A DNA stretch of 64,000 nucleotides, taken from NCBI GenBank assembly GCA_035290965.1, contig DATDTD010000064.1:108-64107 (forward strand). The letters run 5' to 3'. This DNA is from an archaeon (GTDB lineage Archaea; Iainarchaeota; Iainarchaeia; Iainarchaeales; GCA-2688035). Below the pieces are notes generated by a model. It was not told the DNA's origin. It saw only the letters and a list, made by a program, of their open reading frames with translations, and ran no database searches. The translations under genes were made by a program, and so were the position numbers. Positions 1-54,903 of the stretch are shown piece after piece; position 1 is the first letter of the stretch; each line of letters starts with the position of its first letter.

Positions 1-186
1 TTGCACGAAGCAAACTCGGAATACCTGGAAAAGACTCGCAAAATTTATTCCCTGCTTGCAAAAAAGCACAACTGGATTGAAATCACATGCGCGGAAAAAA
101 AGCAGGGCTCCTGGGCTGTGAAGCCGATAGGGGCGGTTAACAAAGAGGTTCTTGAAAAACTCAGGGCAAGGCAAATTATTAAATAG
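1..186 (+). CDS. 3' fragment of a gene truncated by the window edge; tail weakly resembles nucleotide (dTMP-type) kinase C-termini
   Basis: ORF open to position 1 with stop at 184-186. The ...EYLEKTRKIYSLLAKK... helix pattern is only a weak by-eye similarity. Confidence 0.3.
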   Translation: MHEANSEYLEKTRKIYSLLAKKHNWIEITCAEKKQGSWAVKPIGAVNKEVLEKLRARQIIK

Positions 187-218
187 TTGTTTTCCGTTAT
201 TATTTCAGGTTTTTTTAT

Positions 219-1259
219 ATGGGCGCATACATTGACGGGGTAATCGAGTCCTTCAGGCATTCGCTTAATGTCCCGCTCTGGCTCTATTTCATGCTCGTTA
301 CAATTATTTTCCTTATTGTTACGGGAATTGTCTGCATTGTTTTTCTGCTTCTGGGAATTTTCCTTGCTTCGGGAATTCTCGGTACTGACATTCTGAAAAT
401 GATTTTGGATTTGGTTGCAGGCAATGCGGCCGGCTATTCCGCTCTTTTGGGCCTTTCTGCCGCCCTTACAATTCCTGCAGTCATTGCAAACCTTGCAGTT
501 GTATTCGTTGTTTTTTTCATTGCCTGGATTATTGTGGACCTTTTAATCGGCTCTTTTTTCGAGGCAGCGCTTTTTTTCCTTGCAAGGGATTCCCTGCAGG
601 GAGCAAAGCTTGACCTTGGAAGCGCATTTTCAAGCGCAAAGGAAAAATTCCTTGTTTTGTTCAAAGTCAGGGTCCTTGTAGGAATTTTCGTCTCGATTTT
701 GTCGCTCGTAATTTTTTCGCCACTGCTCGCTTCGATTCCCGCTTTAATGCAGCAAATGCCTTTGCTTTCAATGGCATCGGGCAATCCAGGAACTGCCAGC
801 TCTGCAATGCTTGCATTCATTGGCTTTTTCCTGCTCGCTGCAGTGCTTTTCCTTGTACTGTTGCTGGTTCTTTTTTTCCTTTCCCCTTTCCTTACTTTAA
901 TGGTGCCCACTGCAATTTTCTCAAAACTCGGGGCAGTCGATTCGATAAGGCGCACAATTGAAATAACAAAGGCAAAATACTGGGAATCCCTGGGATTTTT
1001 GCTCCTGTTCGGAGTTCTTGCAGGCATTGCCCTGTCTGTTTTCATAGCAATAATAATAGTCATTGAATTCCTGTCTATTTTTGCAATATTCTTCATTGCA
1101 CTTGCTGTTTTCCTTGCAATAGTGCGCGTTGCACTTCAATTCGCTTTCGGCACTTGGATGAATGCCTGGACAACTCTCTCGCAGGTAATCCTCTACGACC
1201 TGAACTCCGGCCATGCAAAAAAACCTGCAAGAAAATCCTTTGTCGGCGGAACACGCTGA
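219..1259 (+). CDS. polytopic integral membrane protein, unknown function
   Basis: 346-aa ORF with many long hydrophobic segments (for example IIFLIVTGIVCIVFLLLGIFLASGILG). The antisense ORFs look like low-complexity artefacts. Confidence 0.6.
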   Translation: MGAYIDGVIESFRHSLNVPLWLYFMLVTIIFLIVTGIVCIVFLLLGIFLASGILGTDILKMILDLVAGNAAGYSALLGLSAALTIPAVIANLAVVFVVFFIAWIIVDLLIGSFFEAALFFLARDSLQGAKLDLGSAFSSAKEKFLVLFKVRVLVGIFVSILSLVIFSPLLASIPALMQQMPLLSMASGNPGTASSAMLAFIGFFLLAAVLFLVLLLVLFFLSPFLTLMVPTAIFSKLGAVDSIRRTIEITKAKYWESLGFLLLFGVLAGIALSVFIAIIIVIEFLSIFAIFFIALAVFLAIVRVALQFAFGTWMNAWTTLSQVILYDLNSGHAKKPARKSFVGGTR

Positions 1260-1341
1260 TTCTTCTTCTGCCTGTTAACCCGCTTTTTGAAAAGGCAATC
1301 TTTAATATTCCAAAGCGCCTTAATTTAACGGAGCATCAACA

Positions 1342-1578
1342 ATGGCAGTGCCAAGAGACCTTAAAAAAATTCATGAAATCAAGCTTGTAAATGGAAAAAT
1401 TGTCAGCATCACTAACTTTTCCCAGCTTGAGCGCCGCAGAATAAAACCGCATATCGGAAGGCTGCTTGGAAGCGGAAAATCAGTAACCGGGCATGCATCC
1501 ACGCTTTTTGTAGATCTCGGAGTTGAAAGCCGCAGCCTCGGGACAAGGCAGGGCAGCCGCAGAAGGCGCGGGCACTGA
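1342..1578 (+). CDS. small basic hypothetical protein
   Basis: 78-aa ORF with an R/K-rich C-terminus (GSRRRRGH). No recognisable family. Confidence 0.3.
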   Translation: MAVPRDLKKIHEIKLVNGKIVSITNFSQLERRRIKPHIGRLLGSGKSVTGHASTLFVDLGVESRSLGTRQGSRRRRGH

Positions 1579-1629
1579 TAAAAAGCAGTTTTTAATAATC
1601 CCGAAGCATATTAATTTACTGATTACAAA

Positions 1630-2028
1630 ATGCCCGTAACAAAAAACCGCAGAAGAACGCGTTCTGTTGTGCACATTAAGGGAAAAACCGCGGGCCTCGG
1701 GCGCCATGCAGTGCAGCCTTCTTCCGGCATGCATCCGCAAAAGCGCTTTCGCATGCTGCTTGGCGGTGCGCGCGGAATCACTGAAGAAAAGAGAAACCGC
1801 AACAGGCTTTTCAGGGCTGGAACTTCAATTGGACTGACGCGTGATTCTGCGAAAGCAATTGCCTTATTCAAGCCTTCACAGCGCGACATTGATGCGGGTG
1901 TTTTCGGCGTAAAGGTAAGGCCAAAGCTAAACGAGATTGCCGACGCGAGAACAAAGGAAGCTGAAAAAAAATCTGCGCGAAGAAGGCGTTCACAAATTTT
2001 TAAAAGATTCTTCCGCGGAAAAAAATAA
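1630..2028 (+). CDS. highly basic hypothetical protein (possible nucleic-acid binding)
   Basis: 132-aa ORF, very R/K rich at both ends (MPVTKNRRRTRS..., ...KKSARRRRSQIFKRFFRGKK). I could not match it to any ribosomal protein family by eye. Confidence 0.4.
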   Translation: MPVTKNRRRTRSVVHIKGKTAGLGRHAVQPSSGMHPQKRFRMLLGGARGITEEKRNRNRLFRAGTSIGLTRDSAKAIALFKPSQRDIDAGVFGVKVRPKLNEIADARTKEAEKKSARRRRSQIFKRFFRGKK

Positions 2029-2056
2029 AATTTTTTCTGATTCAAGCGTCCTGCGC

Positions 2057-2638
2057 TTATTCTTTTGCCCTGAACATTTTTCCGTGCCCGGGAATTATAT
2101 AATCCGCTTTTTCCAGAATAAGTTTCCTGCTTTTCAGCAAATCCTTTTTGTTTTTTGCATAAGGATCTTTCAGGGACAATAATTCTTTCCTTCCTGTTTT
2201 CTGCTTCCCTGTTTCCCACCACCACAAATCAGCGGCAATTGCAACCACTCCCTTTTCTGTTTGCACAATCGGAGTTGCGTGCTCGTGCGCATGCCCCGGA
2301 GTTGGAACAACCTCTATTTCTGTTCCGGGAATTTTTCCCTTAAAAGAAATTTCCTTGTCCCCGCGGTAAATACTGTCCCCGTCCAAAATATCCTTTCCGG
2401 GAAAAAGCCTTATGTTCAGGATATGGTCAGGATGATAATGAGTCAAAAAAACAATGTCAATATTCTTTGGAGTTAAGCCTTCTTTTTTCAGGGCTTCCAG
2501 AAGCAGTTTTTCGTTGCAGCCCGGATCAACGATTATTTTTTTGCCGGAATCCTCAATCAGCACAGTGCTGCTTGTAGCTTCCAAAAAATCCTTTTGTTGG
2601 CGTGCATATCCCTCTACGAGAACTTTTACAACAGCCAT
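2057..2638 (-). CDS. metallo-beta-lactamase fold hydrolase
   Basis: HxHxDH motif (LTHYHPDH), then the downstream His/Asp ligands TPGHAHEH, AADLWWW and a terminal PGHG. Confidence 0.8.
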   Translation of the reverse strand: MAVVKVLVEGYARQQKDFLEATSSTVLIEDSGKKIIVDPGCNEKLLLEALKKEGLTPKNIDIVFLTHYHPDHILNIRLFPGKDILDGDSIYRGDKEISFKGKIPGTEIEVVPTPGHAHEHATPIVQTEKGVVAIAADLWWWETGKQKTGRKELLSLKDPYAKNKKDLLKSRKLILEKADYIIPGHGKMFRAKE

Positions 2639-2748
2639 AAAACAAACCCAAATTATTCAGTTTGCAGTTTTACAATGTGAGCGAAGCGAACCCAATTTGC
2701 GGAGCAAATTGTTTCTTTCACAAGGCTTTCTTTTCCAAAGAAAGGCTT

Positions 2749-2819
2749 TGCGGGTGCCGGGAATTGGACCCGGGCCTCGACCTTGGCAAGGTCGTGTCAA
2801 ACCACTAGACCACACCCGC
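2749..2819 (-). tRNA. tRNA-Gly (GCC)
   Basis: Reverse complement GCGGGTGTGGTCTAGTGGTTTGACACGACCTTGCCAAGGTCGAGGCCCGGGTCCAATTCCCGGCACCCGCA folds as a cloverleaf. It has a 7-bp acceptor stem and an anticodon loop TTGCCAA. CCA is not encoded. Confidence 0.9.
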
Positions 2820-2826
2820 ACCTGCC

Positions 2827-2855
2827 TTTTCTTTTCTTTGCGAAAGAAAAGAAAA
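2827..2855. repeat. perfect 13-bp-arm palindrome (TTTTCTTTTCTTT-GCG-AAAGAAAAGAAAA) 7 nt upstream of the tRNA-Gly 5' end
   Basis: Read directly. It is part of a roughly 60-nt module duplicated upstream of tRNA-Val. Confidence 0.85.
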
Positions 2856-2964
2856 TGTAAGTTGCCAAAAGAAAAGAAACCTCCTCAAGCTGCCTAAAGA
2901 AAAGAAAAATTTCTTTGGCGCCTAGATACTTTTTTCCCGACAAGGATTTTAAAGCAATTGTGCA

Positions 2965-3037
2965 TGGGCCCGGTGAGAATTGGACTCACGGTCTCCACCT
3001 TGTAAGGGTGGCGTCATAACCACTAGACCACGGGCCC
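2965..3037 (-). tRNA. tRNA-Val (TAC)
   Basis: Reverse complement GGGCCCGTGGTCTAGTGGTTATGACGCCACCCTTACAAGGTGGAGACCGTGAGTCCAATTCTCACCGGGCCCA. Anticodon loop is CTTACAA. CCA is not encoded. Confidence 0.9.
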
Positions 3038-3041
3038 TGCC

Positions 3042-3074
3042 CTTTCTTTTCTTTTTGCGAAAAAGAAAAGAAAG
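3042..3074. repeat. perfect 15-bp-arm palindrome (CTTTCTTTTCTTTTT-GCG-AAAAAGAAAAGAAAG) 4 nt upstream of the tRNA-Val 5' end
   Basis: Read directly. It is followed by TGTAAGCTGCCCAAAGAAAAGAAA, which matches the tRNA-Gly upstream module. Confidence 0.85.
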
Positions 3075-3274
3075 TGTAAGCTGCCCAAAGAAAAGAAAAA
3101 ACCTGAATCTTTGGCAAACAAACTTTCCTTTTCCGAAAGAAAAGAACAATTTTGGCAATATGTGCTGTTGCTAAAGAAAAAGGCTGTGGGGAAATATTTA
3201 AATACAAATAATGCCTTATAGGTTTAGGTGATTTTTTGAAAGATGTTTTTTGCTGTGCTAACAATTTCTATTTG

Positions 3275-3649
3275 ATGCGCCTGATAGGCGCTTTGGTCAT
3301 AATTGTGGGATTTGCGTTATTGAGCGGTGCAGTCCTGAATTCTTCGGATTCATGGAGGGCGGTAAACGATTATTCTGGATGCGTTGCAAGCCTTTCTGCG
3401 GATGCCCCTGATTATTCGCAGCTGCGCCTGACTTACTGCCAGCAGTCAATCTATAATATTACAGGCGTACAGATGCTTGCACAGCCTTTGACAAAGAGCT
3501 TTCAGGCACAGGTTCTTCTTACTGCGGTAGTAAAGATATTTGCTTCAATTGCAATAATCTTCTTGGGAGTATGGCTTTACAGGCCTTTTTCAAGGATGAG
3601 GGCAATGCATGCGCAGGCGCATGCAGAGCAAAGGCACCACAGAAAATAA
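3275..3649 (+). CDS. small membrane protein, unknown function
   Basis: ATG at 3275 (MRLIGALVIIVGFALLSGAVL...), an N-terminal TM segment and a second TM near the C-terminus. The ORF track extends to a TTG at 3236. Confidence 0.45.
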   Translation: MRLIGALVIIVGFALLSGAVLNSSDSWRAVNDYSGCVASLSADAPDYSQLRLTYCQQSIYNITGVQMLAQPLTKSFQAQVLLTAVVKIFASIAIIFLGVWLYRPFSRMRAMHAQAHAEQRHHRK

Positions 3650-3737
3650 GAAGAAAGGCAATTGCTCTTTTTCCTTTTTCTTTATTTTTAATTCCTTCAG
3701 CGGAGCAATTGCTTTTTTTGCAGAACCTTTGCAGCAA

Positions 3738-5099
3738 TTAAGCCATTGTAACTACTTTTACTTTTTCAGAGTTTTCAAGGCGGCCTTTTTTCACTCCAAC
3801 CAAGCATTCAATGTTGTTTTCCTGTGCAGCATCGACAAGCCTTTTCGTTACTATGCCGTCGAAAACAACTGCTTTTGTTGCAGGATTTTTGTGCATTTCG
3901 TCAAGAAGGTCTCTTACGCTTACTTCCTTTATTGTGTTGTTTTTTTCATCGAGAAACCTTGCCTTCAGGGAATTTTTGAGTTCCTGCATTATTGGCCCGA
4001 ATTTCTGGTTTTCTTCCTGCGAAGCCGCAGGGCGAAGCTCTTCAAAAGAAGGCATTGCCCGAGGAGCGCCGTCAAATTCAAAGGGCTTTTCAAAAGGCCT
4101 TTCAAAGCTCCTGTGTTCAAACCTTTCCCGCGGCCTTTCCGAAAAATTTCCGCGCATAGGCGGCCTTCTTCCACTGCGCTGCGGCATTCCCCTTCCTCTG
4201 GTGTTTGGCTTGAATTCCCTCTGCGGAAATCTCCTAGGCGGGGGCCTGCTTGAATATTCCCGGTTTTCCATTTCACCTGAAAATCTGTACATTGCAACGG
4301 GAATTTTTCTTGCCAAACTCAAAAGAATTTCTTTTCTTGCAAGTTCCTCAACTTCTTTTCCATCGGGTGCCTTTGCAATGAATTCAATTGTTGCAGTCTG
4401 AACAAGCTGCCTTGCAATCAAATCCCCGCCCCGATCTCCGTCAACAAAAACAGTGATGTGCTTTTTTTTGCTGAGCTCTATTATTGTGGGAGAGATTTTT
4501 GCGCCGTTCATTCCGATAACGTTTTTGATGTTGCTTTTCAAAAGGTTTACAACATCCGCCCTTCCTTCAACAACAATTACCTGTTCGTTTGTTTCAACTT
4601 CCGGCCCTGCAGGAAGCTTTTCCTCTCCGAATTCGACTATTTCCGCTGTTCTCTTGTCCTCCATTATGCCTGTTGCTATTTCCTGGCTTTGGGGCATTTC
4701 AGAGGTTAAGTTCTGGAGCAATTGCTTTGCCCTTTCCGCGAGTGCGCTTCTTTTCACTGCCCTTGTGTCTTCTATTTTTTCGATTTCGAATTTTGATTCA
4801 TAAGGGCCTACCTTGTCAACGCTTTCAACGCACGCCGCAAGCATGCTTGTTTTTACCATGTCCATGCTGCTGGGGGCTGTCAAGGTACCGTTTGTTTTTC
4901 CCATCTGGATTTCGAATTCAACGTCAATCCTTCCTATTTTTCCGGATTGCTGAAGTTCTTTCAGATCCATGTCTTCGCCTAACAGCCCTTCTGACTGCCC
5001 GAAAACCGCGCCTATAATATCGTGTTTTTCTACTATTCCCTGTATTTCGAATTTTGCTTTTATCAGATACTTAAAAGTGTTCAAGTATGTCTTTGCCAT
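3738..5099 (-). CDS. dnaG: archaeal DnaG-type primase (Toprim domain)
   Basis: N-terminus MAKTYLNTFKYLIKAKFEIQGIVEKHDIIGAVFGQSEGLLGEDMDLKELQ is typical of archaeal DnaG. Toprim motifs are VVEGRADV and FVDGDRGGDLI. ATG at 5099. Confidence 0.9.
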   Translation of the reverse strand: MAKTYLNTFKYLIKAKFEIQGIVEKHDIIGAVFGQSEGLLGEDMDLKELQQSGKIGRIDVEFEIQMGKTNGTLTAPSSMDMVKTSMLAACVESVDKVGPYESKFEIEKIEDTRAVKRSALAERAKQLLQNLTSEMPQSQEIATGIMEDKRTAEIVEFGEEKLPAGPEVETNEQVIVVEGRADVVNLLKSNIKNVIGMNGAKISPTIIELSKKKHITVFVDGDRGGDLIARQLVQTATIEFIAKAPDGKEVEELARKEILLSLARKIPVAMYRFSGEMENREYSSRPPPRRFPQREFKPNTRGRGMPQRSGRRPPMRGNFSERPRERFEHRSFERPFEKPFEFDGAPRAMPSFEELRPAASQEENQKFGPIMQELKNSLKARFLDEKNNTIKEVSVRDLLDEMHKNPATKAVVFDGIVTKRLVDAAQENNIECLVGVKKGRLENSEKVKVVTMA

Positions 5100-26390: not shown

Positions 26391-26568
26391 AAGCTTTTTG
26401 CTTGACCTGCAAAGCCTTTTGAGGCTTGAACAGAACATGGAATCTGTTTACGAGAAAATATTGAAGCAGATTAGCACTCCTGAAATCAGCGGGCCGATAA
26501 AGGCAATAGATGTGCAGGAACAGGAACATGTAAGGCTGCTTGAAAAACTGATTGAAAAGCACGCATAG
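26380..26568 (+). CDS. small helical protein, apparent paralogue of the preceding ORF
   Basis: 62 aa (MATESFLLDLQSLLRLEQNMESVYEKIL...EQEHVRLLEKL). It overlaps the previous ORF by 11 nt. Confidence 0.4.
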   Translation: MATESFLLDLQSLLRLEQNMESVYEKILKQISTPEISGPIKAIDVQEQEHVRLLEKLIEKHA

Positions 26569-26629
26569 CAGCCTTGGTTTCAAGCCAAAAATTAATTATA
26601 CAGGTTACTGCCTATTATTCTCGGTTCAA

Positions 26630-28180
26630 ATGCAGGAAAAGCCAAAGCAGCCTTTTGGAAAAAAATTGGATTCCTACGACAACATAGAGATTACCGAGGA
26701 ATTTCCCTTCAATTTGTACAATGTAAAAGCGCAGGAGCTTCCCCAGAACGAAAGGCTTATTGCAAATGCATTGGTTCAATTGATTTTAAGAAAATCCTCT
26801 TTCCACGACCTTGAATCTGTTCTTGGAAAAAACGCTTCGTTGGTTGAAGAAATCCGCAGTGAAATAATCCAGCCCATTGATGCAGAGGAAATGCTCCAGA
26901 AGTTTCCCAGCACAGAGGCATTGGAAAAAATAGGGAAAACCATTCTCGGGATTGCAAAAAAGATTCAGGTGAAAAACCCGGAGCTTTTCACGCAGATTGT
27001 GCTTGATGAAACCTTGGGCTTCAGGAGCCTTTCTTCCTTTATGCGCGACAATCTGCTTGAGGAAATAATGGTTAACGGTTTTGAAAAAAATGTTTTTGTT
27101 TTGCACAAAAGGTTCGGCATATGCAAAACAAACATTGTTGCCCGTAAAAATGGATTCCTGCACGAAACAATTTCAAGGATTGCCGCAACAGCAAACAGGC
27201 AGTTCAGCGAGCACAGCCCCCTGCTTGATGCACGTCTTCCTGACGGAAGCAGGGCAAATGCAACTCTGCAGTATGTGACTCCCGCAGGCCCCTCCCTTAC
27301 AATTAGAAAATTCAATCCAGTTCCCTTTTCAATAACAGATTTGCTCGCAAACAGCACTCTTTCCAGCGAAGCCGCGGCTTTTTTGTGGACAATGATTGAG
27401 GGAATGAATATTTCCCCGAAAAACATTATTATTACCGGGGGAGCGGGAAGCGGAAAAACCTCTCTCCTGAATGTCCTGAGTTTTTTTATCAGGAAGCACG
27501 AAAGAATTATTTCAATCGAGGACACAATAGAGCTTGATTTTGCGGGAAGGGAAAACTGGATTCAGATGGAATCAAGGCCTGCGCTTCACGATATTCCCTC
27601 TGTTTCAATGGATGACCTGCTGAAAAACTCTTTGAGAATGCGCCCTGACAGGCTTATTGTGGGGGAAGTGCGCGGAGAAGAAGCCCAGACACTGTTTGTT
27701 GCAATGGACACAGGGCATGAAGGAATTCTGGGAACTTTACACAGCAACACTGCAAGGGAAATGCTCCTGCGCTTAAAAAGCGCTCCAATGAATGTTCCGG
27801 AACAAATGCTCCCATTGCTTGATTTTGTAATAGTAATGCAGCGCAGGTATAACCCCGAAAAAGGAATGCAGCGCAGGATAAAGCAGATTGCCGAAGTATC
27901 CAGAATGGACGACAAGGTTTTGTTGAGCAATATTTTCGAGTTCAACGAAAAAAAGGATGCAGTGGAAAAAACAGATGTTCCGAGCCATGTCTTTGAAATG
28001 CTTGCAAACGAATGCGGAATGCAGAAAAACGATTTGAAAAAAGAAATCCTGATCCGCCAGAAAATCCTTGACTGGGCTTTTTTGGAAAAAAAGCATTCAA
28101 ACAGCGAGCTCGAGGAAATAATTCAGGGCTATTATTACAATCCCGAAAAAATCCTGAAAAAAGTAAGCGAAAGCCTCTAA
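26630..28180 (+). CDS. type IV pilus/archaellum-family secretion ATPase (GspE/FlaI/VirB11 superfamily), intein-free copy
   Basis: LLDARLPDGSRANA, Walker A ITGGAGSGKTSLLN, Asp box ERIISIEDTIELDF, Walker B RPDRLIVGEVRGEEA and His box TGHEGILGTLHSN. Confidence 0.9.
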   Translation: MQEKPKQPFGKKLDSYDNIEITEEFPFNLYNVKAQELPQNERLIANALVQLILRKSSFHDLESVLGKNASLVEEIRSEIIQPIDAEEMLQKFPSTEALEKIGKTILGIAKKIQVKNPELFTQIVLDETLGFRSLSSFMRDNLLEEIMVNGFEKNVFVLHKRFGICKTNIVARKNGFLHETISRIAATANRQFSEHSPLLDARLPDGSRANATLQYVTPAGPSLTIRKFNPVPFSITDLLANSTLSSEAAAFLWTMIEGMNISPKNIIITGGAGSGKTSLLNVLSFFIRKHERIISIEDTIELDFAGRENWIQMESRPALHDIPSVSMDDLLKNSLRMRPDRLIVGEVRGEEAQTLFVAMDTGHEGILGTLHSNTAREMLLRLKSAPMNVPEQMLPLLDFVIVMQRRYNPEKGMQRRIKQIAEVSRMDDKVLLSNIFEFNEKKDAVEKTDVPSHVFEMLANECGMQKNDLKKEILIRQKILDWAFLEKKHSNSELEEIIQGYYYNPEKILKKVSESL

Positions 28181-39665: not shown

Positions 39666-41203
39666 TTTTCCCAAACATTTTTATAGCTGCAAAACGTTTT
39701 GAGAAATTTTGCCAATGTCTGGCTTTGTATTATCTTTTGGTCGCGTGTAGGAGTAATTTTTATTCCAAATGTTTTTTCTATTTTGTTTTCGATTTCTTTA
39801 TTTGTTAGAATTTTTTTTGGGGGCCGTTGAATAACCGTAACCATTGTCTTTTTTGGCGAAAGATATTCAAAAATATTTTTGTCAATTTGGTTTGTTTTTA
39901 ATTTAAATTTAATAAAGTTATGCCCCCGTAATCCAAATTTTACATTATTTTTCGAAGCTTCTTCCAAAATTTCTTTTTTTTTCAAAACTTTTTCATACAG
40001 TTTCAGGGGGGCTGCGAGTTCATTTGTTTCAAATCTCGAATAATTTTTTCTAGATAAATTTAACTCTTGCGAAAATTCTTGTTGGGTTAGTCTTTTTTTT
40101 TTCCTTATTTTTTTAAGTTTTTCTCCAAATCCTTTGATTCTCAAATGTTCAATCAGGGTAATATCGAAGTATTTATTAAAAATGGATTTGTTGTCAAATC
40201 CTAGAAACGCTTCTTTTGCAGTCCCTCTTTTTATGTGATGTTCTAAAATATTTTGTTTTCTTGGATGTGAAAAACCTATTTCTTTGCTGAATTTCATGGT
40301 GTCCTTTGAGTATATTTTTATTCCGGAAATTCCAAGATTGTCAAATACTACTTCGCTGGGTGAAAGTCCAAATCCTATCAGGGCTTTTCTGACCTCTCTT
40401 GTAAAATCAGCATCTGCTGATTTGAATGTAAGGTAATTGTATTTTTCATGTATGTGCCCGTCAGTGTCAAAAAGTCCCCTGACAAATGCTCGTAGGCACT
40501 CGCGGTTTTTTTTGTAAATGGATGGTATTCTCAGCCTTTTTTTTGGAGAAAGCGGAACTTCTAAAAAAATAGTCACAAATTTGGAAATTGGTCTAGAAAC
40601 AACAAGTAATTCAAATTGGTGGTCCCTTCTTCGAATGGGGGCGGGTGATTTTCCGAAAAGCTTGTAAAAGAGGCCACCCACGTATTCAAGAAACTCTTTT
40701 GATGCCTGTAAATTTTCTTCTTTGTGGTGGCCATCATTTATTTTAATCAAGTTTTTGCTTATGTAGCCGTCCCCGAATATTACGCCACAAAGATACGCCA
40801 ATTCAGTGTTTAACAATTGTTTCTTAGTTAGTGGAAGTGAAATTGTTTTATTATTGTAAATTAATACCTTGTTTGTAACGCTCTTTTGGAAAAAATTGTC
40901 TTCTTTTGAGAGAAGACTAACTGCCCTTATGAAACTTACTGGAAAAAAATTAGAGGAAAGCCACTCTTTCAGGGTTTCTAGCCTTACTCTGTATTTGGCG
41001 CACAAGTATTTTTGGTAAAAATCCCTTAAGGCTATAAAGCCTCTTTGTTTGTCTGTTTTTAATATTCTTCTCTTTGTTTTTGGAGAAAAAACTCTTGGAG
41101 CAGATTTTATGTTTTTATTCTTTCCAATCAGGCAAAGCGCGATGTTTAATTTTTCTCCGAAGAACTTCTGCTTTAACAAAGAGTCGTTTTTTATAGAAAC
41201 CAT
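39662..41203 (-). CDS. free-standing double-motif LAGLIDADG endonuclease-like protein fused to an XRE-type HTH
   Basis: LAYLCGVIFGDGYI and LRAFVRGLFDTDGHI are the two LAGLIDADG motifs. The HTH is LKKIRKKKRLTQQEFSQELNLSRKNYSRFETNE. The gene is visibly more AT-rich than its neighbours. Confidence 0.75.
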   Translation of the reverse strand: MVSIKNDSLLKQKFFGEKLNIALCLIGKNKNIKSAPRVFSPKTKRRILKTDKQRGFIALRDFYQKYLCAKYRVRLETLKEWLSSNFFPVSFIRAVSLLSKEDNFFQKSVTNKVLIYNNKTISLPLTKKQLLNTELAYLCGVIFGDGYISKNLIKINDGHHKEENLQASKEFLEYVGGLFYKLFGKSPAPIRRRDHQFELLVVSRPISKFVTIFLEVPLSPKKRLRIPSIYKKNRECLRAFVRGLFDTDGHIHEKYNYLTFKSADADFTREVRKALIGFGLSPSEVVFDNLGISGIKIYSKDTMKFSKEIGFSHPRKQNILEHHIKRGTAKEAFLGFDNKSIFNKYFDITLIEHLRIKGFGEKLKKIRKKKRLTQQEFSQELNLSRKNYSRFETNELAAPLKLYEKVLKKKEILEEASKNNVKFGLRGHNFIKFKLKTNQIDKNIFEYLSPKKTMVTVIQRPPKKILTNKEIENKIEKTFGIKITPTRDQKIIQSQTLAKFLKTFCSYKNVWEN

Positions 41204-47041: not shown

Positions 47042-47599
47042 TCACGGAACAATTCCTACTGAAATAGCTCCCGCTGTTTTTGAAATGCTCACGTTTGCAA
47101 GTGACCTTTCAGTTCCGCCGCCCAAAAAAGCCCCGTTCGGATTAGTGCTGCATGAAAAATCAGTTGCCTGAACTGCAATTCTTCCCCGACATTCAAGTGT
47201 TTCTTGCAAGGTTACTGGATTTATTGTTGTTGCACAGCAGTTTGTAGCGCCTGCAGGGCAAGAAGCCGGGTCGTTCGGGTTCCAGGTATTGAGCATTTCA
47301 GCGCTGTAATCTATTGAACCGCTTTCGCAGGTTATTGCGCTTTTTTCAGGAAGGAAAACGCTTATTGTTGACTTTGCGCTGTTCGGAGAAAGCCCGACAG
47401 AATCAATTGTTCCCGCGATTTTCTGCGCCGCAATCTTTGCGTTCCCCAGCCTTGAGATTTCTTCTGCGGAATTGTTTGAAAAATTCACCATTGGCATTAC
47501 TACTGCAGTAATATAGATTATTATGAACAGCAATAGGAAAATGAATTCTATTGAAACCTGCCCTCTTGAATTCTTCAAAGCAAAAAAAGCCAGTGCCAT
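47042..47599 (-). CDS. pilin-like protein (class III signal peptide)
   Basis: ...KNSRGQ|VSIEFIFLLLFIIIYITAVV. Confidence 0.65.
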   Translation of the reverse strand: MALAFFALKNSRGQVSIEFIFLLLFIIIYITAVVMPMVNFSNNSAEEISRLGNAKIAAQKIAGTIDSVGLSPNSAKSTISVFLPEKSAITCESGSIDYSAEMLNTWNPNDPASCPAGATNCCATTINPVTLQETLECRGRIAVQATDFSCSTNPNGAFLGGGTERSLANVSISKTAGAISVGIVP

Positions 47600-48699
47600 A
47601 AAAAATCTCCCGCCAAACCCAAAAAAACATATGCAATCAGGACAGCCGGAACAAACGGAACACTTTCGCTGATTGAAACATTTTCCCCAATCTTTTTTTC
47701 CTTTGCAAGCGCCTGCAGTTCCTTTATTTCTTCCAAAGACAATCCTGCTGCCCTTGCGCTTGAAACAATTCTCCTGCCCTTCGGATTCAGATAATCCGAT
47801 AGTTCATGCAATCTATTTTGTTTTAAGTAATTAATAACATTTTTGATTTGAATTTCAGGAGCCTTTGAGACTGTTCCATTGCTTTCAATGAATGTTTCCG
47901 AAACAATCATTCCTTCTTCAAGGTTTGAAACATTCACTTTTTTCCTCAGCAGTGTTTTCGACAAAAAATACAATTTGAACAAAAGCCACACGCCCAAAAA
48001 GAAAAATAACAGCAGAAAAAGCCATTGCAAAGAAGCAGTCATGTCCTGCAAGAGCGCAAAGGCAAAAACAGCAACCGCGATTCCAACCTGCAGAACTCTT
48101 TTTCTCAAAAGCCCGAAAGCAAACAGCAATGGAATGTCAAGCAGCACTGGCAAATTGAAATACATGAGGATAAAACCCATTCCTATTATTGCAAAGCAGT
48201 ATTCTATTGTCGAAAAAATCTTTTTTCTTGCATCAAGCAGGAAAGCCTTTTTCTGTTCATGATTCTTCTGGAGCTTTACTGCGCTTATGAATGCGCCGTA
48301 CGGCAGCATTGCAAAAACAGAGAAAATGAAAAGGCTTATTACAAAAATCGGGAGCTGTATGCTCGGGCTTGTTATTCCAAATGCATTAAGGATATTCGGG
48401 TTTATGGGATTCAAAGCCGCGATTGCAATCATTAGTTTTACGTCTCCGCCAGCCCATACTCCCGCTTTCCATAAAAGCCATGCAAAGCCGAACGCAATCG
48501 CTATTCCCGCAATGCAAAAAGCAACCGGGAGAATGCTTGCTTCAAGGAAACCCTGTGCGACATGCAGTATTATTCCAAGCGCAAGCATTGCATAATTCAG
48601 CTTATCGGGAACAATTCTCTGTTTCAAATCAGTAAAGGTTGCTGTGGCAAGGAAAAAAAGTGAAATAAAAAAGAAAAAGAACCGGAACAACAAAAACAC
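47575..48699 (-). CDS. A24-family prepilin/preflagellin peptidase with a C-terminal extension
   Basis: TATFTDLKQRIVPDKLN (first Asp) and AGGDVKLM (second Asp, GxGD-like), within a polytopic membrane protein. Confidence 0.8.
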   Translation of the reverse strand: MFLLFRFFFFFISLFFLATATFTDLKQRIVPDKLNYAMLALGIILHVAQGFLEASILPVAFCIAGIAIAFGFAWLLWKAGVWAGGDVKLMIAIAALNPINPNILNAFGITSPSIQLPIFVISLFIFSVFAMLPYGAFISAVKLQKNHEQKKAFLLDARKKIFSTIEYCFAIIGMGFILMYFNLPVLLDIPLLFAFGLLRKRVLQVGIAVAVFAFALLQDMTASLQWLFLLLFFFLGVWLLFKLYFLSKTLLRKKVNVSNLEEGMIVSETFIESNGTVSKAPEIQIKNVINYLKQNRLHELSDYLNPKGRRIVSSARAAGLSLEEIKELQALAKEKKIGENVSISESVPFVPAVLIAYVFLGLAGDFLWHWLFLL

Positions 48700-49481: not shown

Positions 49482-50408
49482 TCAGCCTATCATTAACCCC
49501 GATGCGAATCCCGCAACATAGTAGAGAATGAAAGCCAGTAATAAAAGGATTGGGAAGTATATAATGCTTTTGCTCAATTTTCCGTCGCGCATCAAAGCAA
49601 CCATTGTGCTTGTCGCCAAAACCTCTATCAAAAGATATGCGAGCATGAGCGTGAGAATAAAATCTTTTACGGAAAGCACTTCAAGCCTCTGGGCTTCTGA
49701 AACCCCCGCGCTTGCGCCCGCCCTTATGAACAAGGAGATTACTGTCGAAACAAATCCGAAAATCATAGGAGTTATGAATACTCCCGCTGCAACCATGAAA
49801 ATTACCTGCATCATTACCTGTGCTTTTCTTTCCACTGAAATCCTGTATGCTTCCCTTACATCGTTTGAAATGTCGTCAAGCACATCTGCAAGCCCTGCGC
49901 CGGCTTTTATTGTATCGACGATTACTGTAACGCTCCTGCTGATGAGCCTTGAATTAATGTTTTCCGAAAAACTGCGCAGGCTGTCTTCAAGGTTTTCCCC
50001 CTCCTCCAGCTTTCTCAAAACCATTTCAATTTCCTTGCTCAAGGGGCCGTACTGCGAGAGCGCAACTTCGCGGAGGGCAAACTCGTATGTTCCGCCTGCT
50101 TTCAAAGTATCCGACATCTGTTTCAATGCCTCGGGAAGCGCTTCCTCTATCTGGCTTATTCTTTCCATTGCCTTGAGGTATGGATATCCAAGCATTATGT
50201 CGAGCACTCCCAAAAAAGCCGCAAAGCTTGTTATCTGGGAAATCGGAAGCTCAAGCCTTGAAATTAAGAGATAGCAGACAATGAAAGCGAGCGAGGAAAA
50301 AGAAGCCGAAATCAGAATCCAGGTTGTAGCCTTGTACCTGAACTGGGCTTCGCGTATTATTCTCTTGTATTTTGTCAGCAAAGCGAATCTGCTTTCTTTT
50401 ACAACCAT
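49482..50408 (-). CDS. FlaJ/TadC-like (T2SS-F domain) pilus platform membrane protein
   Basis: ATG at 50408 (MVVKESRF...). It has a helical cytoplasmic T2SSF-like segment flanked by TMs. The upstream part of the track ORF overlaps the preceding gene. Confidence 0.7.
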   Translation of the reverse strand: MVVKESRFALLTKYKRIIREAQFRYKATTWILISASFSSLAFIVCYLLISRLELPISQITSFAAFLGVLDIMLGYPYLKAMERISQIEEALPEALKQMSDTLKAGGTYEFALREVALSQYGPLSKEIEMVLRKLEEGENLEDSLRSFSENINSRLISRSVTVIVDTIKAGAGLADVLDDISNDVREAYRISVERKAQVMMQVIFMVAAGVFITPMIFGFVSTVISLFIRAGASAGVSEAQRLEVLSVKDFILTLMLAYLLIEVLATSTMVALMRDGKLSKSIIYFPILLLLAFILYYVAGFASGLMIG

Positions 50409-50440
50409 TTTTTTTTCACTTTTTTTTATTTTTCTTTTTT

Positions 50441-51634
50441 TTATACCTTTGGCTGCGAGGATTTTATGTAGATTACAAGCATAAGCAGCAGCGCGGGCAG
50501 CACAACCAGATACATGACGCTCATTGTAACGGGAGTCAGCGGCAGCGACTGCAGTGAAACAGTGTTTCCGGTTATTACGCTGTTTCTTATTGCGCCCAGA
50601 ATTCCCATTATTACAGGAAGCCATATTGCAACGAAAATAAATATTACCCCGAAAAAATTCATTCTCTGTGCAAAGTCACGGGTTTTCATTCTAAGTTCAA
50701 AGCCCACATCGTCCGCAATAGTGCTCATTATTTCAGAAAGATTCCCGCCTGTTTTCAATGCGCGTATCATGTGCGTTAAGGAATTTCTCAGCGACTTGTT
50801 CTGCGTCCTTAGAGCAAGCCTGCTTAACGCGTCCTTTATTTCAATTCCCTCCTCAACCTCGTTAATTGTTTTTGCAAACTCCTCGCTTAAAACTCCATAA
50901 TCGGAAACAGCTATTGCCTGCAATGTCCTGTACAATCCCATTCCCGAATGAAGTTCAGTGCTCATGTGCCTTAACGCAAAGGGAAGTTCCATGCTTATCG
51001 CGTCTCCGCGCGATTTTGCCTTCTGCTTTGGAACAGCAAAAATAACTATTACGCTCAAAAAGAAAAACCATATCGCAAGGAGAACCGGCGCCAGAATCTT
51101 CAGGTAAAGCGGCAGCCAGGACAATCCGATTAATATCCCGGAAATTGCAAATACAACGAGCGCGCAGATTGTCGAAAGAGTAACTGTTATTGCAACATAC
51201 TGTTTTACTGAATAGCGCATGTTTGCGGAAAACAAAAAATATGAAAGTGTTTCCATCTGCGGCATTCTTATTACTATTTTGCTCAAGGGGGAGAAAATCC
51301 TTTTTGCCTTTATGTAAAGCATTCCGATTTTTCTCACTGTGGGCGAGCTTACCTCCTGCAGTTCTTCAACCTTCTGGATTTCAATTTCTTTTGTTTTTCC
51401 CTCTGCAATTATTCCTCTCAATTCTCCTAAGCTTCCTTCGAGGCCGCCGTATTCAACGCCTTCCAGCTGGTATTTCCTGCGCATTTTTTGCACAATGCTT
51501 TCCACTTTTTCAACGTCCAATCCTTCCAGCTTTTCCTCTTCGTGCCCTGTTTCCTGCGCAGGCTTCTGCAGGGCTTCGCCTTTCTTTTTGTCCTTTTCCT
51601 CTATTTTCTTTTTTAGGAAATCCAGAGAAGCCAT
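50441..51634 (-). CDS. FlaJ/TadB-like (T2SS-F domain) pilus platform membrane protein
   Basis: 397 aa with an acidic N-terminal cytoplasmic region, TM pairs and a T2SSF-like helical segment (LPFALRHMSTELHSGMGLYRTLQAIA). Confidence 0.7.
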   Translation of the reverse strand: MASLDFLKKKIEEKDKKKGEALQKPAQETGHEEEKLEGLDVEKVESIVQKMRRKYQLEGVEYGGLEGSLGELRGIIAEGKTKEIEIQKVEELQEVSSPTVRKIGMLYIKAKRIFSPLSKIVIRMPQMETLSYFLFSANMRYSVKQYVAITVTLSTICALVVFAISGILIGLSWLPLYLKILAPVLLAIWFFFLSVIVIFAVPKQKAKSRGDAISMELPFALRHMSTELHSGMGLYRTLQAIAVSDYGVLSEEFAKTINEVEEGIEIKDALSRLALRTQNKSLRNSLTHMIRALKTGGNLSEIMSTIADDVGFELRMKTRDFAQRMNFFGVIFIFVAIWLPVIMGILGAIRNSVITGNTVSLQSLPLTPVTMSVMYLVVLPALLLMLVIYIKSSQPKV

Positions 51635-54600
51635 CAGCTTTCCCTCTTTTTGAGAATAAAAGAATTAGTTGCGTCCTGCACGCTCTTCATGTCGCGGATT
51701 CCCTTTTTGCTGAGCCCTCTCAAAAAATCCGCTCTTTCCTTTATTTCAAGTTCAAGATCTTTTTTTGCAAGTCCTGTAAACTCGCCGAGCATCTGAATGT
51801 ATCTTGCGGAAATGCTGCTTCTTTCAAGCAGGTCTTTTACAGGCTCTCTTGAAAAAACAGGCTGTGTCTGGGCTTTTCCCGCGAGGACTCCGCTCACCTC
51901 TGAAATTTCAGTCAATCTTCTTATTGTCCCTTTTTTCTTGTCGTGCAATCTGTGCTCTATCAAAATCAAGTCAAGCCCGCTCAGCATTAATTCCGGAACA
52001 TTCATTGGCGGGCTTGTTATTCTTACAATTGTTTCCTGCGCGGAATTTGCATGGATTGTTCCCATTGAGCCCACATGCCCTGTGTTCATTGCAGTGAAAA
52101 GGCTGAATGCTTCTCTATGACGCACTTCTCCCACAATTATCCTGTCAGGGCGCATTCTCAAGGAGTTTTTTGTGAGAATGTCAAGAGTCAGTTCTCCCTT
52201 TCCTTCAAGTCCTGGGGGTCGTGACTCTAATCTTATCCAGTGCTTCAAGGGAAGGTTTAATTCCGCAGTATTGTGGGCAAAAACATTTGAGCAGACAAAG
52301 TTTTCGCATTCCGGAACAGATAAATCATAAACAGTTCTTTCGGTTTTTTCCAGTGCAATTATTTTTTCTATCTGGTCCCAGAAAATATCGGCTTCTGCAA
52401 GCATTTTGAGTTTTTCATTCGGCTTTTCCTGTGCAATCTTTGCCAGGAATCTCCTTCCGAAGCGGCTTTTTCCGGAATAATATTCGTGCTGAACAGTTAT
52501 TTGCCCTTTAATTGCTTCCAAAAATGCGGCAGGCAATGGAATAATATCTGAACAATCGTGGGTTGCCGGCTTTTTAAGGGCAGTCTCGCGGATTCTTTCC
52601 ATTTTTCTTTTTATTATGAATCCCACGATTTCTTCGAACAGCAAAATATTATTGTAACTTGAAATTCTTCCTTTGAACGTCTTGTCTTTTTGATATGTTT
52701 TTTTTGCAATCCTGCCGTGTATTCCAAGCCTTAACAGCAATGTCTGGACATCTTCCATAAGTTTTTTTGATGCCGATGTCCATTCTATCTCGTTTTTTCC
52801 GACTGTTCCGTCTCCTGAAAAATAACCACTTAAAAATGCAGCGATTTGCCGGTTGTCAAGGCGCATTGTCCAGTCGGGGGCTCTTTTTGTGAAAGCGTTC
52901 CCTTTCAAATCAAGCACATCTTTCATTATTGTTTTTAGCAATGCGGAATTTACCATTGTGGAAAACTTGTCACTGTGCATTTTAGTGCTTATGCCAAACC
53001 GGGCAGCTACTCTCGTTACAAGCTCTTTAAGCTCTGCTTCGCTTACTGAAAATATTATTGAGTTTTTGTCATAACACCCGTCGGCAAGCCACAGTCCCGT
53101 GAGCTCCAGAAATTCCTGGTCGATTTCCAGCATTGCAGGGATTTTAATGCGGCTTCTTCCTGCTTTGAAGCACAGGCCTCTTGCATCCGCATTTGAAAAA
53201 TAGTTTTTTTCAAGCAGTTCCCTGAAAACCCTTACTGGGATAGAGCCTTTTCTTCTCCACAGGTTTATCATTGCACTTTTGCCGCCTGCGGTTTTTTGGT
53301 TAACAAATTCTGAAAGATACTCTTTTGGGATTTTTTTTAAAACACAAGTTATTTTTTCCCCGCATATAAAAAATCTTTCAAGCTTTTCAAGGCAATCCAG
53401 CAGATTAACCTCTTTCAGGCCGCTGGCTTCAAAAGGCAGGCTTCTTGGAGTTGCGATAAAATCGTTTTCCTTTAACTCGCCTGTTTTTATTGCAGAAATA
53501 TTCCCTTCTTCGTCAATGGCAAACAGGGAATGGTCTTCGGTAACTTTAATGCTCTTGCCGCTTTTGAGAATAACTTCAAACATTTTTTTGCATGTTCTGT
53601 GCCTTATAAAACACCTGATTCTTTTTTTCACTATTTTTCCGTTTTTGTCAAAGCACAGTACTTCCAAATCTTCAATGTTTCCGCAAATCTCGTGCTTTTC
53701 CGCAGAGTAACTGCAACCGTGCGTTTCAATCATTTTTTCAACAATTTCCCCGATTTTAACCCTTCTCGGATTGTTTTTTTCAAAAACAATTATTTCCTCA
53801 TCCGCATCAACACTGTCTTCAATTGTAATTATTCTTTCTGATTCGGGAATGAAAGCAGCGAGAACATTCAATGTTGTTGTTTTTCCGCTTCCCGCTCCCC
53901 CTGAAATTAAAATGTTTGCAGGCCTTGAGCCCATTCCTTCCACTGCAAGCCACAAAAATCCCGCAACCTCTGCGCTCATTGTGTTCAGGTTTATCAAATC
54001 CACAATCGAATAAGGATCTTCCCTGAATTTTCTTATTGTTAGAGTGCTTGCTTCAACAGATGCAGGGGGAAAGGTTGCGTTCACTCTGCTTCCGTCAGGG
54101 AGACGTGCATCAAGCAATGGGCTGCTGATATCAACTCTTCTTCCGACTTCGCGCGCAATCCTGTTTGTTAAGTCCTGTATTTCCTGTTCGGAAAAAAATT
54201 CAATGTTTGTTGTCATCATTCCGTACTGCCTGTGAAAAAGGAAAACAGGCTTTTTCGCGCCTACAACCATTATTTCTTCCAGCTTGTCGTCTCTTACAAG
54301 CGGATCAATGATTCCATAGCCCACCATTTCGCGGACAACTGCTTCCGCATAAAAATCAAATCTTCTTTCGGGAATCCTAAGTTCGGGAGCAGAGCGCAGA
54401 ATTTCAAGGATTTTCTGCTTGTAAATCGCTCTTCTCTGCAGTACGTCCCTTATCCTGTAAGGGCTGATTGTAATCAGCCTTGTCGCTGCCTCCTTGATGG
54501 TTGAAACAATTGCCTTTTCAGAGGCAGACGGCCTTGTGACTGGCACCATGTAATAAAGAAGCGGCTTTCCCGGGATCTTGTAAATTTTTACATCGCCATA

Positions 54601-54903
54601 AGCATCAATCTCGATTTTTTTCCCGACTGCTTCAATTTCACGTTCAGCAGTCGATTTTTCTTCCGGTTTCACTGCCCTTTCTTCCTCGGCCTGCTTCATT
54701 GGCTCGCTTATTTCCTGCAGTTTTTTTTTCAGTTCTTCCCCTAGCTCAAACTCTTCCGCTTTTTCGCGCCTTTCGTCGGGCGCTTTTTCAAGGGAAGCCT
54801 TTGCGTCTTCAATTGCAGCCTTTGCCTCTTCCTGAGGAGAGGGCTTTGCCTGTTCCTCAGACTTCGCCCTCATAATCAGTTTTTTCAAATAATCAGTCGG
54901 CAT
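51634..54903 (-). CDS. pilus-assembly ATPase (GspE/FlaI/VirB11 superfamily) interrupted by an intein
   Basis: The exteins carry LLDARLPDGSRVNA, Walker A ISGGAGSGKTT, ERIITIED|...|TAELNL, Walker B RPDRIIVGEVRHREA and His box TGHVGSMGTIHAN. Confidence 0.9.
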   Translation of the reverse strand: MPTDYLKKLIMRAKSEEQAKPSPQEEAKAAIEDAKASLEKAPDERREKAEEFELGEELKKKLQEISEPMKQAEEERAVKPEEKSTAEREIEAVGKKIEIDAYGDVKIYKIPGKPLLYYMVPVTRPSASEKAIVSTIKEAATRLITISPYRIRDVLQRRAIYKQKILEILRSAPELRIPERRFDFYAEAVVREMVGYGIIDPLVRDDKLEEIMVVGAKKPVFLFHRQYGMMTTNIEFFSEQEIQDLTNRIAREVGRRVDISSPLLDARLPDGSRVNATFPPASVEASTLTIRKFREDPYSIVDLINLNTMSAEVAGFLWLAVEGMGSRPANILISGGAGSGKTTTLNVLAAFIPESERIITIEDSVDADEEIIVFEKNNPRRVKIGEIVEKMIETHGCSYSAEKHEICGNIEDLEVLCFDKNGKIVKKRIRCFIRHRTCKKMFEVILKSGKSIKVTEDHSLFAIDEEGNISAIKTGELKENDFIATPRSLPFEASGLKEVNLLDCLEKLERFFICGEKITCVLKKIPKEYLSEFVNQKTAGGKSAMINLWRRKGSIPVRVFRELLEKNYFSNADARGLCFKAGRSRIKIPAMLEIDQEFLELTGLWLADGCYDKNSIIFSVSEAELKELVTRVAARFGISTKMHSDKFSTMVNSALLKTIMKDVLDLKGNAFTKRAPDWTMRLDNRQIAAFLSGYFSGDGTVGKNEIEWTSASKKLMEDVQTLLLRLGIHGRIAKKTYQKDKTFKGRISSYNNILLFEEIVGFIIKRKMERIRETALKKPATHDCSDIIPLPAAFLEAIKGQITVQHEYYSGKSRFGRRFLAKIAQEKPNEKLKMLAEADIFWDQIEKIIALEKTERTVYDLSVPECENFVCSNVFAHNTAELNLPLKHWIRLESRPPGLEGKGELTLDILTKNSLRMRPDRIIVGEVRHREAFSLFTAMNTGHVGSMGTIHANSAQETIVRITSPPMNVPELMLSGLDLILIEHRLHDKKKGTIRRLTEISEVSGVLAGKAQTQPVFSREPVKDLLERSSISARYIQMLGEFTGLAKKDLELEIKERADFLRGLSKKGIRDMKSVQDATNSFILKKRES
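52270..53814 (-). mobile_element. 515-aa intein with a LAGLIDADG homing-endonuclease domain inside the pilus ATPase
   Basis: Starts SVDADEEIIV (block A, Ser1), has block B TEDH, LAGLIDADG motifs LTGLWLADGCYD and AAFLSGYFSGDGTV, and ends VYDLSVPECENFVCSNVFAHN|T. The exteins rejoin to match ERIISIEDTIELDF of the paralogue at 26630. Confidence 0.85.

Follow-up and report, generated by a model that had tools for sequence, protein, structure and literature searches.

A predicted class 1 intein containing a LAGLIDADG homing endonuclease in the Asp box of an archaeal pilus assembly ATPase

The interrupted ATPase gene

A stretch of 64,000 nucleotides from an archaeal genome (GTDB lineage Iainarchaeota; Iainarchaeia; Iainarchaeales; GCA-2688035; assembly GCA_035290965.1, contig DATDTD010000064.1, positions 108 to 64,107 of the forward strand) was analyzed. 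It is called the window below, and positions refer to it. It contains a gene for an assembly ATPase of a type IV pilus (T4P)-like system that is interrupted by an insert of 515 codons, for which an earlier note, made from the sequence alone, had proposed that it is a full-size LAGLIDADG intein. The gene is a single open frame of 1089 codons at 51634..54903, its 3267 bases are intact and contain no internal stop, and gene and intein both lie on the minus strand, about which the earlier note was silent. The sequence ERIITIED occupies residues 356-363 of the precursor. It is followed by the insert (residues 364-878, positions 52270-53814), which begins with SVDADEEIIV and finishes with NVFAHN, immediately in front of TAELNL; the coordinates and motifs in the earlier note were all correct.

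Deletion of the insert in silico yielded a protein of 574 amino acids that reads ERIITIED-TAELNL, i.e., the contiguous conserved host motif was restored. On the DNA level, the joined flanks without the intein are GAAAGAATAATTACAATTGAAGAC/ACTGCGGAATTAAACCTTCCCTTG (a slash between sequences marks the junction, here and below), and the predicted junction peptide of the ligated exteins is ...IITIEDTAELNLPLK. In the alignment with the solved CpaF structure 8rkd, ...ERVVTCED is aligned up to query residue 365 and AAELQL picks up at residue 878, with no gap between the two. The alignment on both sides thus fixes the position of the insert inside the Asp box to the residue, with the boundary at ...ED, in agreement with the earlier proposal that the Asp box is split. 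The Pfam family T2SSE was also found in two stretches, one ending at residue 365 and the next starting at residue 878. The gene consists of the following parts:

51634..54903, minus strand: precursor gene, T2SSE/CpaF/TadA-like pilus ATPase with one intein, 1089 amino acids (from the list of open reading frames and the split Pfam T2SSE match)
53815..54903, minus strand: N-extein, residues 1-363, with the N-terminal domain, Walker A (GAGSGKTT) and the first half of the Asp box (IITIED)
53440..53814, minus strand: N-terminal splicing region, intein residues 1-125, with blocks A (Ser1-Val2) and B (T92-E-D-H95)
53125..53439, minus strand: helical linker, probable DNA-recognition region, intein residues 126-230 (helical in the structural model, with confidence)
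52615..53124, minus strand: core of a double LAGLIDADG homing endonuclease, intein residues 231-400, with GLWLADGC (D245) and GYFSGDGT (D335)
52405..52614, minus strand: helical region following the endonuclease, intein residues 401-470, partly of low confidence
52270..52404, minus strand: C-terminal splicing region, intein residues 471-515, with blocks F (VYDLSV, D497) and G (NVFAHN, H514-N515)
51634..52269, minus strand: C-extein, residues 879-1089 and stop, with Thr+1, the second half of the Asp box (TAEL), Walker B and the His box

Walker B of the ATPase reads RMRPDRIIVGEVR, and the His box, which is uninterrupted, reads NTGHVGSMGTIHANS. The public gene call for this protein (P0001, on a contig of 5445 bases) has 995 amino acids and starts at an internal GTG (VKIEIDAYG...), 94 residues too late. 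The start of the precursor, MPTDYLKKLI, resembles the N-termini of orthologues (MPSYLDDLIKK), which supports the upstream ATG at 54903 and the product of 1089 amino acids.

Splicing residues, endonuclease motifs and predicted fold

The insert is very probably a canonical class 1 intein that contains a LAGLIDADG homing endonuclease and is located between Asp363 and the next extein residue, Thr, in the Asp box of a T4P-like assembly ATPase. It matched the Pfam families Intein_splicing (E-value 3.5e-25, residues 373-878) and LAGLIDADG_3 (1.5e-25, in two stretches), and these values exclude a chance match. The NCBIfam model TIGR01445 (intein_Nterm) matched residues 365-461 with 1.2e-12, and many equivalog models of intein-containing proteins matched too. 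Splicing blocks are therefore present on profile alignment. The residue set of a class 1 intein is complete, i.e., Ser1, TxxH, the block F Asp, the terminal His-Asn and Thr+1; the TEDH motif at precursor residue 455 corresponds to T92-H95 of the intein.

An alignment of nine inteins was made from the window's intein, a second copy of the source genome and seven inteins from database orthologues, all of them located at the same site in the Asp box (site a). S1, V2, T92, H95, D497, H514 and N515 were invariant in all nine. The acidic residues of the endonuclease, which the earlier note had named as a point to check, are intact in the window's intein (Asp245 and Asp335), and both are kept in eight of the nine aligned inteins. 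Mean identity to the homologous inteins was 56% in the endonuclease core, 49% and 59% in the two splicing parts, 40% in region 401-470 and lowest, at 29%, in the linker 126-230. The endonuclease core is thus as conserved as the splicing parts, a pattern expected from purifying selection on an active endonuclease.

An AlphaFold2 model based on the nine-intein alignment reached a predicted local distance difference test (pLDDT) score of 88.8 and a predicted TM score of 0.89. Its N-terminal splicing region is rich in beta structure and has pLDDT values above 90, and values of 46-69 were found across intein residues about 410-470. The best Foldseek matches were the solved inteins PI-PkoII (2cw7; E-value 7e-31, TM score 0.73), the TliVMA intein (7qss; 0.64) and PI-PfuI (1dq3; 0.60), all with probability 1.00 and with E-values from 7e-31 to 7e-22. 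Taken together, profiles, alignment and model agree with the earlier description of a full-size LAGLIDADG intein with Ser1, TEDH, terminal HN and Thr+1, and the intein is real and, judged from its sequence, probably active. Splicing itself, endonuclease activity and recognition of the Asp-box site are inferred from these features.

Based on these residues, the following course can be proposed. The gene would be translated into a precursor of 1089 amino acids with a split active site. Ser1 would undergo an N-O acyl shift, assisted by T92 and H95 of block B, and attack by Thr+1 would lead, by transesterification, to a branched intermediate. Cyclization of Asn515, assisted by His514, would then release the intein, and an O-N shift would ligate ...IED to TAEL..., yielding the ATPase of 574 amino acids. 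The freed intein with its two LAGLIDADG motifs most likely cuts intein-less alleles of the Asp-box site, and repair would copy the intein into them (homing); that the endonuclease is active today is suggested by the conservation of its core.

The host ATPase and the pilus locus

The assignment of the 1089-residue frame to the GspE/FlaI/VirB11-type ATPases in the earlier note was confirmed by the Pfam match to T2SSE (2.4e-40). The best-scoring NCBIfam models were FlaI, TadA, BasE and VirB11, and the closest solved relatives in a comparison with the PDB were CpaF, the GspE-like 2oap of Archaeoglobus and FlaI. The scores for FlaI (NF058587, 278.7 with a cut-off of 550) and TadA (TIGR03819, 224.3 with a cut-off of 373) remained below the cut-offs because the intein splits the ATPase. 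The motifs of secretion ATPases follow in order, i.e., GSGKT at residue 338, IED/TAEL, RPDRIIVGEVR at 918 and TGH...HANS at 941, and CpaF/TadA-like archaeal T4P ATPase is the most fitting name for the protein.

The glutamate of the Asp box of PilB coordinates the catalytic Mg2+ (PMC5424180, where the motif is also defined). In the precursor 515 residues separate Walker A and one half of the Asp box from the other half, Walker B and the His box, so that the precursor cannot be an active ATPase and splicing is needed for ATPase function. Downstream of the ATPase gene the following genes are located:

49482..51634, minus strand: two T2SSF (TadB/TadC/FlaJ-like) membrane platform genes, immediately following the ATPase gene (Pfam 1.2e-20 and 3.2e-18)
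47042..48699, minus strand: prepilin peptidase (Peptidase_A24 and Arc_PepC) and a pilin-like protein with class III signal peptide

The components of an archaeal type IV pilus locus, i.e., ATPase, T2SSF platform, prepilin peptidase and a protein with class III signal peptide, are therefore all present, and the neighbors assign the host ATPase to a type IV pilus-like locus. The host-attachment pilus proposed in the earlier note goes beyond what the locus shows. The source genome is an assembly of 1.2 Mb in 88 contigs, is about 88% complete and contains five T2SSE-type ATPase genes. Named relatives of its proteins belong to Diapherotrites/Iainarchaeum, Micrarchaeota and metagenome-assembled genomes (MAGs) labelled 'Nanoarchaeota'.

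Paralogues in the source genome

The window contains one further ATPase gene of this kind:

26552..28180, plus strand: intein-free paralogue, FlaI/TadA-like T2SSE ATPase, 542 amino acids, 45% identical to the spliced extein

As the earlier note had stated, this paralogue has no insert and reads ERIISIED-TIELDF across the site. Its DNA agrees with the joined flanks at 29 of 48 bases and at just 14 of the central 24, and it was therefore judged an unlikely homing target.

A second intein copy lies outside the window, on contig C20 of the source genome (G000; frame 2..2965, minus strand), in a T2SSE/FlaI-like paralogue. The junctions are MED/SVAGES...VCHN/TREL, and the LAGLIDADG intein has 501 amino acids. 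Compared with the window's copy, the inteins are 37% identical (E-value 3e-100) and the exteins 40%, and at such low identities a recent intragenomic transfer between the two intein-bearing paralogues was ruled out.

Distribution of the Asp-box intein

Among the orthologues of the ATPase two intein sites were distinguished, site a in the Asp box and site b in the His box. Inteins at site a show IED/SV...HN/TAEL, with Ser1 and Thr+1. Those at site b are KlbA-like and show NTGHDG/A...SN/C(L or M)GT, and a second lineage at this site has Cys1 and Ser+1 (P0091, P0096, P0102, P0107, P0115 and P0118). Both sites are filled in the orthologues P0002, P0005, P0009 and P0091; in the window's protein site a is filled and site b is empty. 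Full-size inteins at site a were found in seven orthologues (P0002-P0005 and P0007-P0009), with intein identities of 40-51% in a full-length search, and P0091 has a mini-intein of 183 amino acids at this site. An exhaustive search with the intein only retrieved 137 representative clusters at E-values of 1e-30 or lower, many of them with ...IED/SVTGDSEI... shortly after Walker A.

When one genome of each prokaryote species was scanned, 245 relatives of the intein were found, and for the best 80 the junctions were extracted by tblastn anchoring. Among these 80, the N-terminal junction was ED/SV in 78 cases and QD/SV in one, and the N-flank of the remaining one was cut off; the C-terminal junction was HN/T in 79 cases and HN/S in one. 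The 80 loci belong to Iainarchaeum/Diapherotrites, Woesearchaeota, Pacearchaeota, Nanoarchaeota, Aenigmatarchaeota and Micrarchaeota, and their C-exteins fall into at least four host ATPase subfamilies (TAELNLPL, TLELPV..LRKL, TRE[LI].LPDFLHW and TPELRLPHPHW). The rarity implied in the earlier note thus did not hold, i.e., DPANN archaea commonly have this Ser1/Thr+1 intein in the identical position, and at least 80 other species genomes carry it. The identical architecture in 80 independent assemblies also shows that the window's intein is not an assembly artefact.

A further locus, L017, is from a genome of the same genus (G001; open reading frame 652..4533, minus strand) and encodes a third kind of ATPase, a divergent T2SSE-like protein of 1293 amino acids with a long N-terminal extension. 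It carries the same intein family (...LVQED/SVTGDSEI...NILAHN/TLEIPV), and hosts of this class, with about 1275 amino acids, are the commonest carriers among the best 80 loci.

Comparison with known inteins

The closest counterparts are the Asp-box inteins in public MAGs (PEXL01000008 and JAZDDZ010000016 of Candidatus Diapherotrites/Iainarchaeum; P0002-P0009), which have the same insertion point, the same Ser1/Thr+1 pair and the same order of domains. Identity to the window's intein over all 515 residues is 46-53% in the same orthologue and 35-43% in other ATPase subfamilies. The difference is that, within the GTDB family of the source genome, the window's intein is the sole copy detected in this orthologue.

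Novikova et al. (2016) list 21 inteins in archaeal VirB11 (COG0630) and 5 in CpaF (COG4962) (PMC4760082). These share the host class with the window's intein, and they too interrupt a conserved motif in archaeal ATPases of secretion systems or pili. The taxa given there are Crenarchaeota, Euryarchaeota and 'other archaea', and the main text holds no map of insertion sites for VirB11 and CpaF. In the searchable literature this host tally was the only item that surfaced, and no paper was found that specifically describes DPANN Asp-box inteins. The window's intein is thus a textbook case from a family that is widespread and visible in databases, and its hosts belong to a class known to carry inteins; the Asp-box Ser1/Thr+1 inteins, as far as shown by this search, are deposited in databases and apparently not individually described.

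According to the earlier note, the KlbA inteins of methanogens reside in ATPases of this type and are mini-inteins with Ala1, which was borne out. The KlbA intein of Methanocaldococcus jannaschii (MJ0781, PDB 2jmz/2jnq) belongs to class 2 and resides in the same ATPase superfamily as the window's intein, and the construct used for nuclear magnetic resonance (2jmz) starts with MNTGHDG/ALAYDE, i.e., with Ala1 in the His box. The His-box inteins in orthologues of the window's protein match 2jmz with an E-value of 2e-29. In class 2 chemistry residue 1 is Ala, an N-terminal nucleophile is lacking, and Cys+1 attacks the N-junction directly (PMC2807308). The two inteins thus differ in site (NTGHDG/A...N/CxGTxH of the His box versus the Asp box), in junction residues (Ala1/Cys+1 versus Ser1/Thr+1) and in size, the KlbA intein being a mini-intein whereas the window's intein contains an endonuclease; neither the class 2 residue pair nor the His-box insertion is found in the latter. 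In the KlbA-type His-box inteins with Cys+1 (P0009, P0083, P0092, P0095 and P0098) residue 1 is mostly Ala and otherwise Ile, Met, Val or Ser, and this variability fits a class 2 mechanism, without a nucleophile at residue 1.

The closest folds, PI-PkoII (intein 2 of the Thermococcus kodakarensis DNA polymerase), TliVMA and PI-PfuI, share the HINT domain, an extra DNA-binding region and the LAGLIDADG core with the window's intein. They differ from it in sequence (16-19% identity) and in their hosts, which are DNA polymerase, V-ATPase and ribonucleotide reductase.

Mobility and history

In an extein tree of 53 orthologues the occupancy of sites a and b was scattered, with at least three changes at site a, and P0096 and P0099 have nearly identical exteins and differ by the intein at site b. 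The earlier note had suggested a search for intein-free alleles in relatives. These were indeed found: site a is unbroken in the orthologue of every one of the 19 further genomes searched in this GTDB family, among them three congeners with 76-77% identity and frames of 582-602 amino acids. Site b is interrupted in four of the 19. The source species is the only family member searched with a filled site a in the pilus ATPase gene, and the presence of the intein is thus lineage-specific, as expected of a homing cycle. With the joined flanks, the empty sites of the congeners (L023-L025) share 50-52 of 60 bases and 21-22 of the central 24; like the conserved endonuclease core, this similarity lends indirect support to cleavage of intein-less alleles. 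Two relatives show later stages of the homing cycle, i.e., P0009, in which both catalytic Asp residues are replaced by Ser and the endonuclease is dead, and the mini-intein P0091.

Alternative explanations

Three observations weigh against a splicing intein that is still mobile. Splicing with an all-oxygen nucleophile pair such as Ser1/Thr+1 is, as a rule, slower than with Cys-based pairs. In block F, the window's intein and all its relatives have Glu (ENF) in place of the customary His; this position is reported as non-essential in some inteins (PMC2807308). When the window's copy is compared with all sampled site-a relatives, the ratio of intein to extein identity stays within 0.69-0.77, and a ratio this constant gives no indication of a recent transfer. 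A recent donor is likewise not in view among these relatives, and an old residence with many losses and an old transfer cannot be told apart on the present data. The ratios suit long co-divergence better than recent invasion and thus speak for a variant of the homing proposal with which the intein assignment is compatible, namely that splicing is intact and the endonuclease is inactive, the intein being fixed and passed on vertically as a passenger that survives only because it is seldom deleted precisely. Dead or reduced relatives such as P0009 and P0091 point in the same direction. Nevertheless, this variant is considered rather unlikely, because both catalytic Asp residues are intact, the core is conserved like the splicing domains, and the 19 empty orthologues would demand many independent precise losses under pure vertical descent.

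The Glu in block F, together with the redundancy that is conceivable with five T2SSE-type genes in the genome, would also fit a degenerate remnant that no longer splices, in which case the gene would be a pseudogene and one of the four other paralogues would power the pilus. This is very improbable, given that all 3267 bases form an intact frame, no catalytic splicing residue is missing or varies among relatives, the exteins are 76-77% identical to those of congeneric orthologues, and the ATPase gene heads the T2SSF operon. An origin as an assembly chimera or by in-frame fusion of a separate gene found no support beyond the fragmentation of the assembly (88 contigs), and its probability is negligible: removal of the insert restores the host sequence exactly, and the identical architecture occurs in 80 independent assemblies and in many database proteins.

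It is also improbable that the intein has been co-opted as a conditional switch that gates pilus assembly in response to redox state, temperature, pH or host contact. The insertion hits the Mg2+-binding Asp box, so that ATPase activity strictly needs splicing, inteins pile up at several sites of this ATPase family in DPANN archaea, and cue-dependent splicing is reported in the literature sampled for other inteins, e.g., in RadA and DnaB. However, congeneric and same-family orthologues work without the intein, and the patchy occupancy is that of a selfish element. Furthermore, inteins generally insert in conserved catalytic motifs, as stated in the survey cited above (PMC4760082), and a regulatory explanation is not needed. 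A broader proposal of similarly low probability is that the Asp-box Ser1/Thr+1 inteins form one DPANN-wide lineage that has repeatedly moved among type IV filament ATPase paralogues, and that its slow all-oxygen splicing is exploited as a post-translational gate of pilus assembly in episymbionts; these inteins are present in at least four subfamilies, and the source genome has them in two paralogues.

The intein, very probably a canonical class 1 intein, matters little beyond annotation, where gene callers and family models give the split ATPase too low a score. On a larger scale, it adds to a pattern in which the type IV filament ATPases of DPANN archaea form a hot spot for inteins, and both the Asp box and the His box are well populated. 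Two local points are worth keeping, the lineage-specific presence within the family and the occurrence of two intein-bearing paralogues and an empty one in a single genome. The latter forms a natural triplet for studies of homing specificity, composed of the intein-bearing gene of the window, a paralogue with an intein of 37% identity in the corresponding position, and another whose site is empty and diverged. The Ser1/Thr+1 family is compact and apparently robust, has mini-intein relatives (P0091), and could be of minor interest for protein engineering.

Further inteins and tandem ATPases

The source genome contains at least 10 intein-bearing frames, and Pfam intein matches were found on contigs C69, C12, C3, C62, C23, C88, C86 and C81. 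Judged by eye from the flanking sequences, the hosts on these contigs appear to be a HerA-like P-loop ATPase, RtcB, Cdc48, RpoB (truncated at the contig end), a polyprenyl synthase and the small subunit of PolD; two further apparent hosts are fragments, the C-terminal end of an RNA polymerase A''-like protein and Lon.

About 10 kb from the ATPase gene, at 39662-41203 on the minus strand, the window encodes a free-standing protein of 513 amino acids with a double LAGLIDADG and a helix-turn-helix (HTH) domain. It matches the endonuclease and HTH part of the His-box (KlbA-site) inteins in orthologues of the pilus ATPase (24-27% identity, 31% over one match of 122 residues, E-values 1e-13 to 2e-6). 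A relationship with the Asp-box intein was rejected, as BLAST revealed zero matches to the site-a intein.

Lastly, the proteins P0006 and P0010-P0075 are tandem-fused T2SSE ATPases of about 1000-1200 amino acids, i.e., two ATPase units, and contain no inteins. One tandem-fused protein has 1680 amino acids and about four units. Many of these proteins are labelled FlaI or CpaF, and several are from Hydrothermarchaeota-like MAGs.

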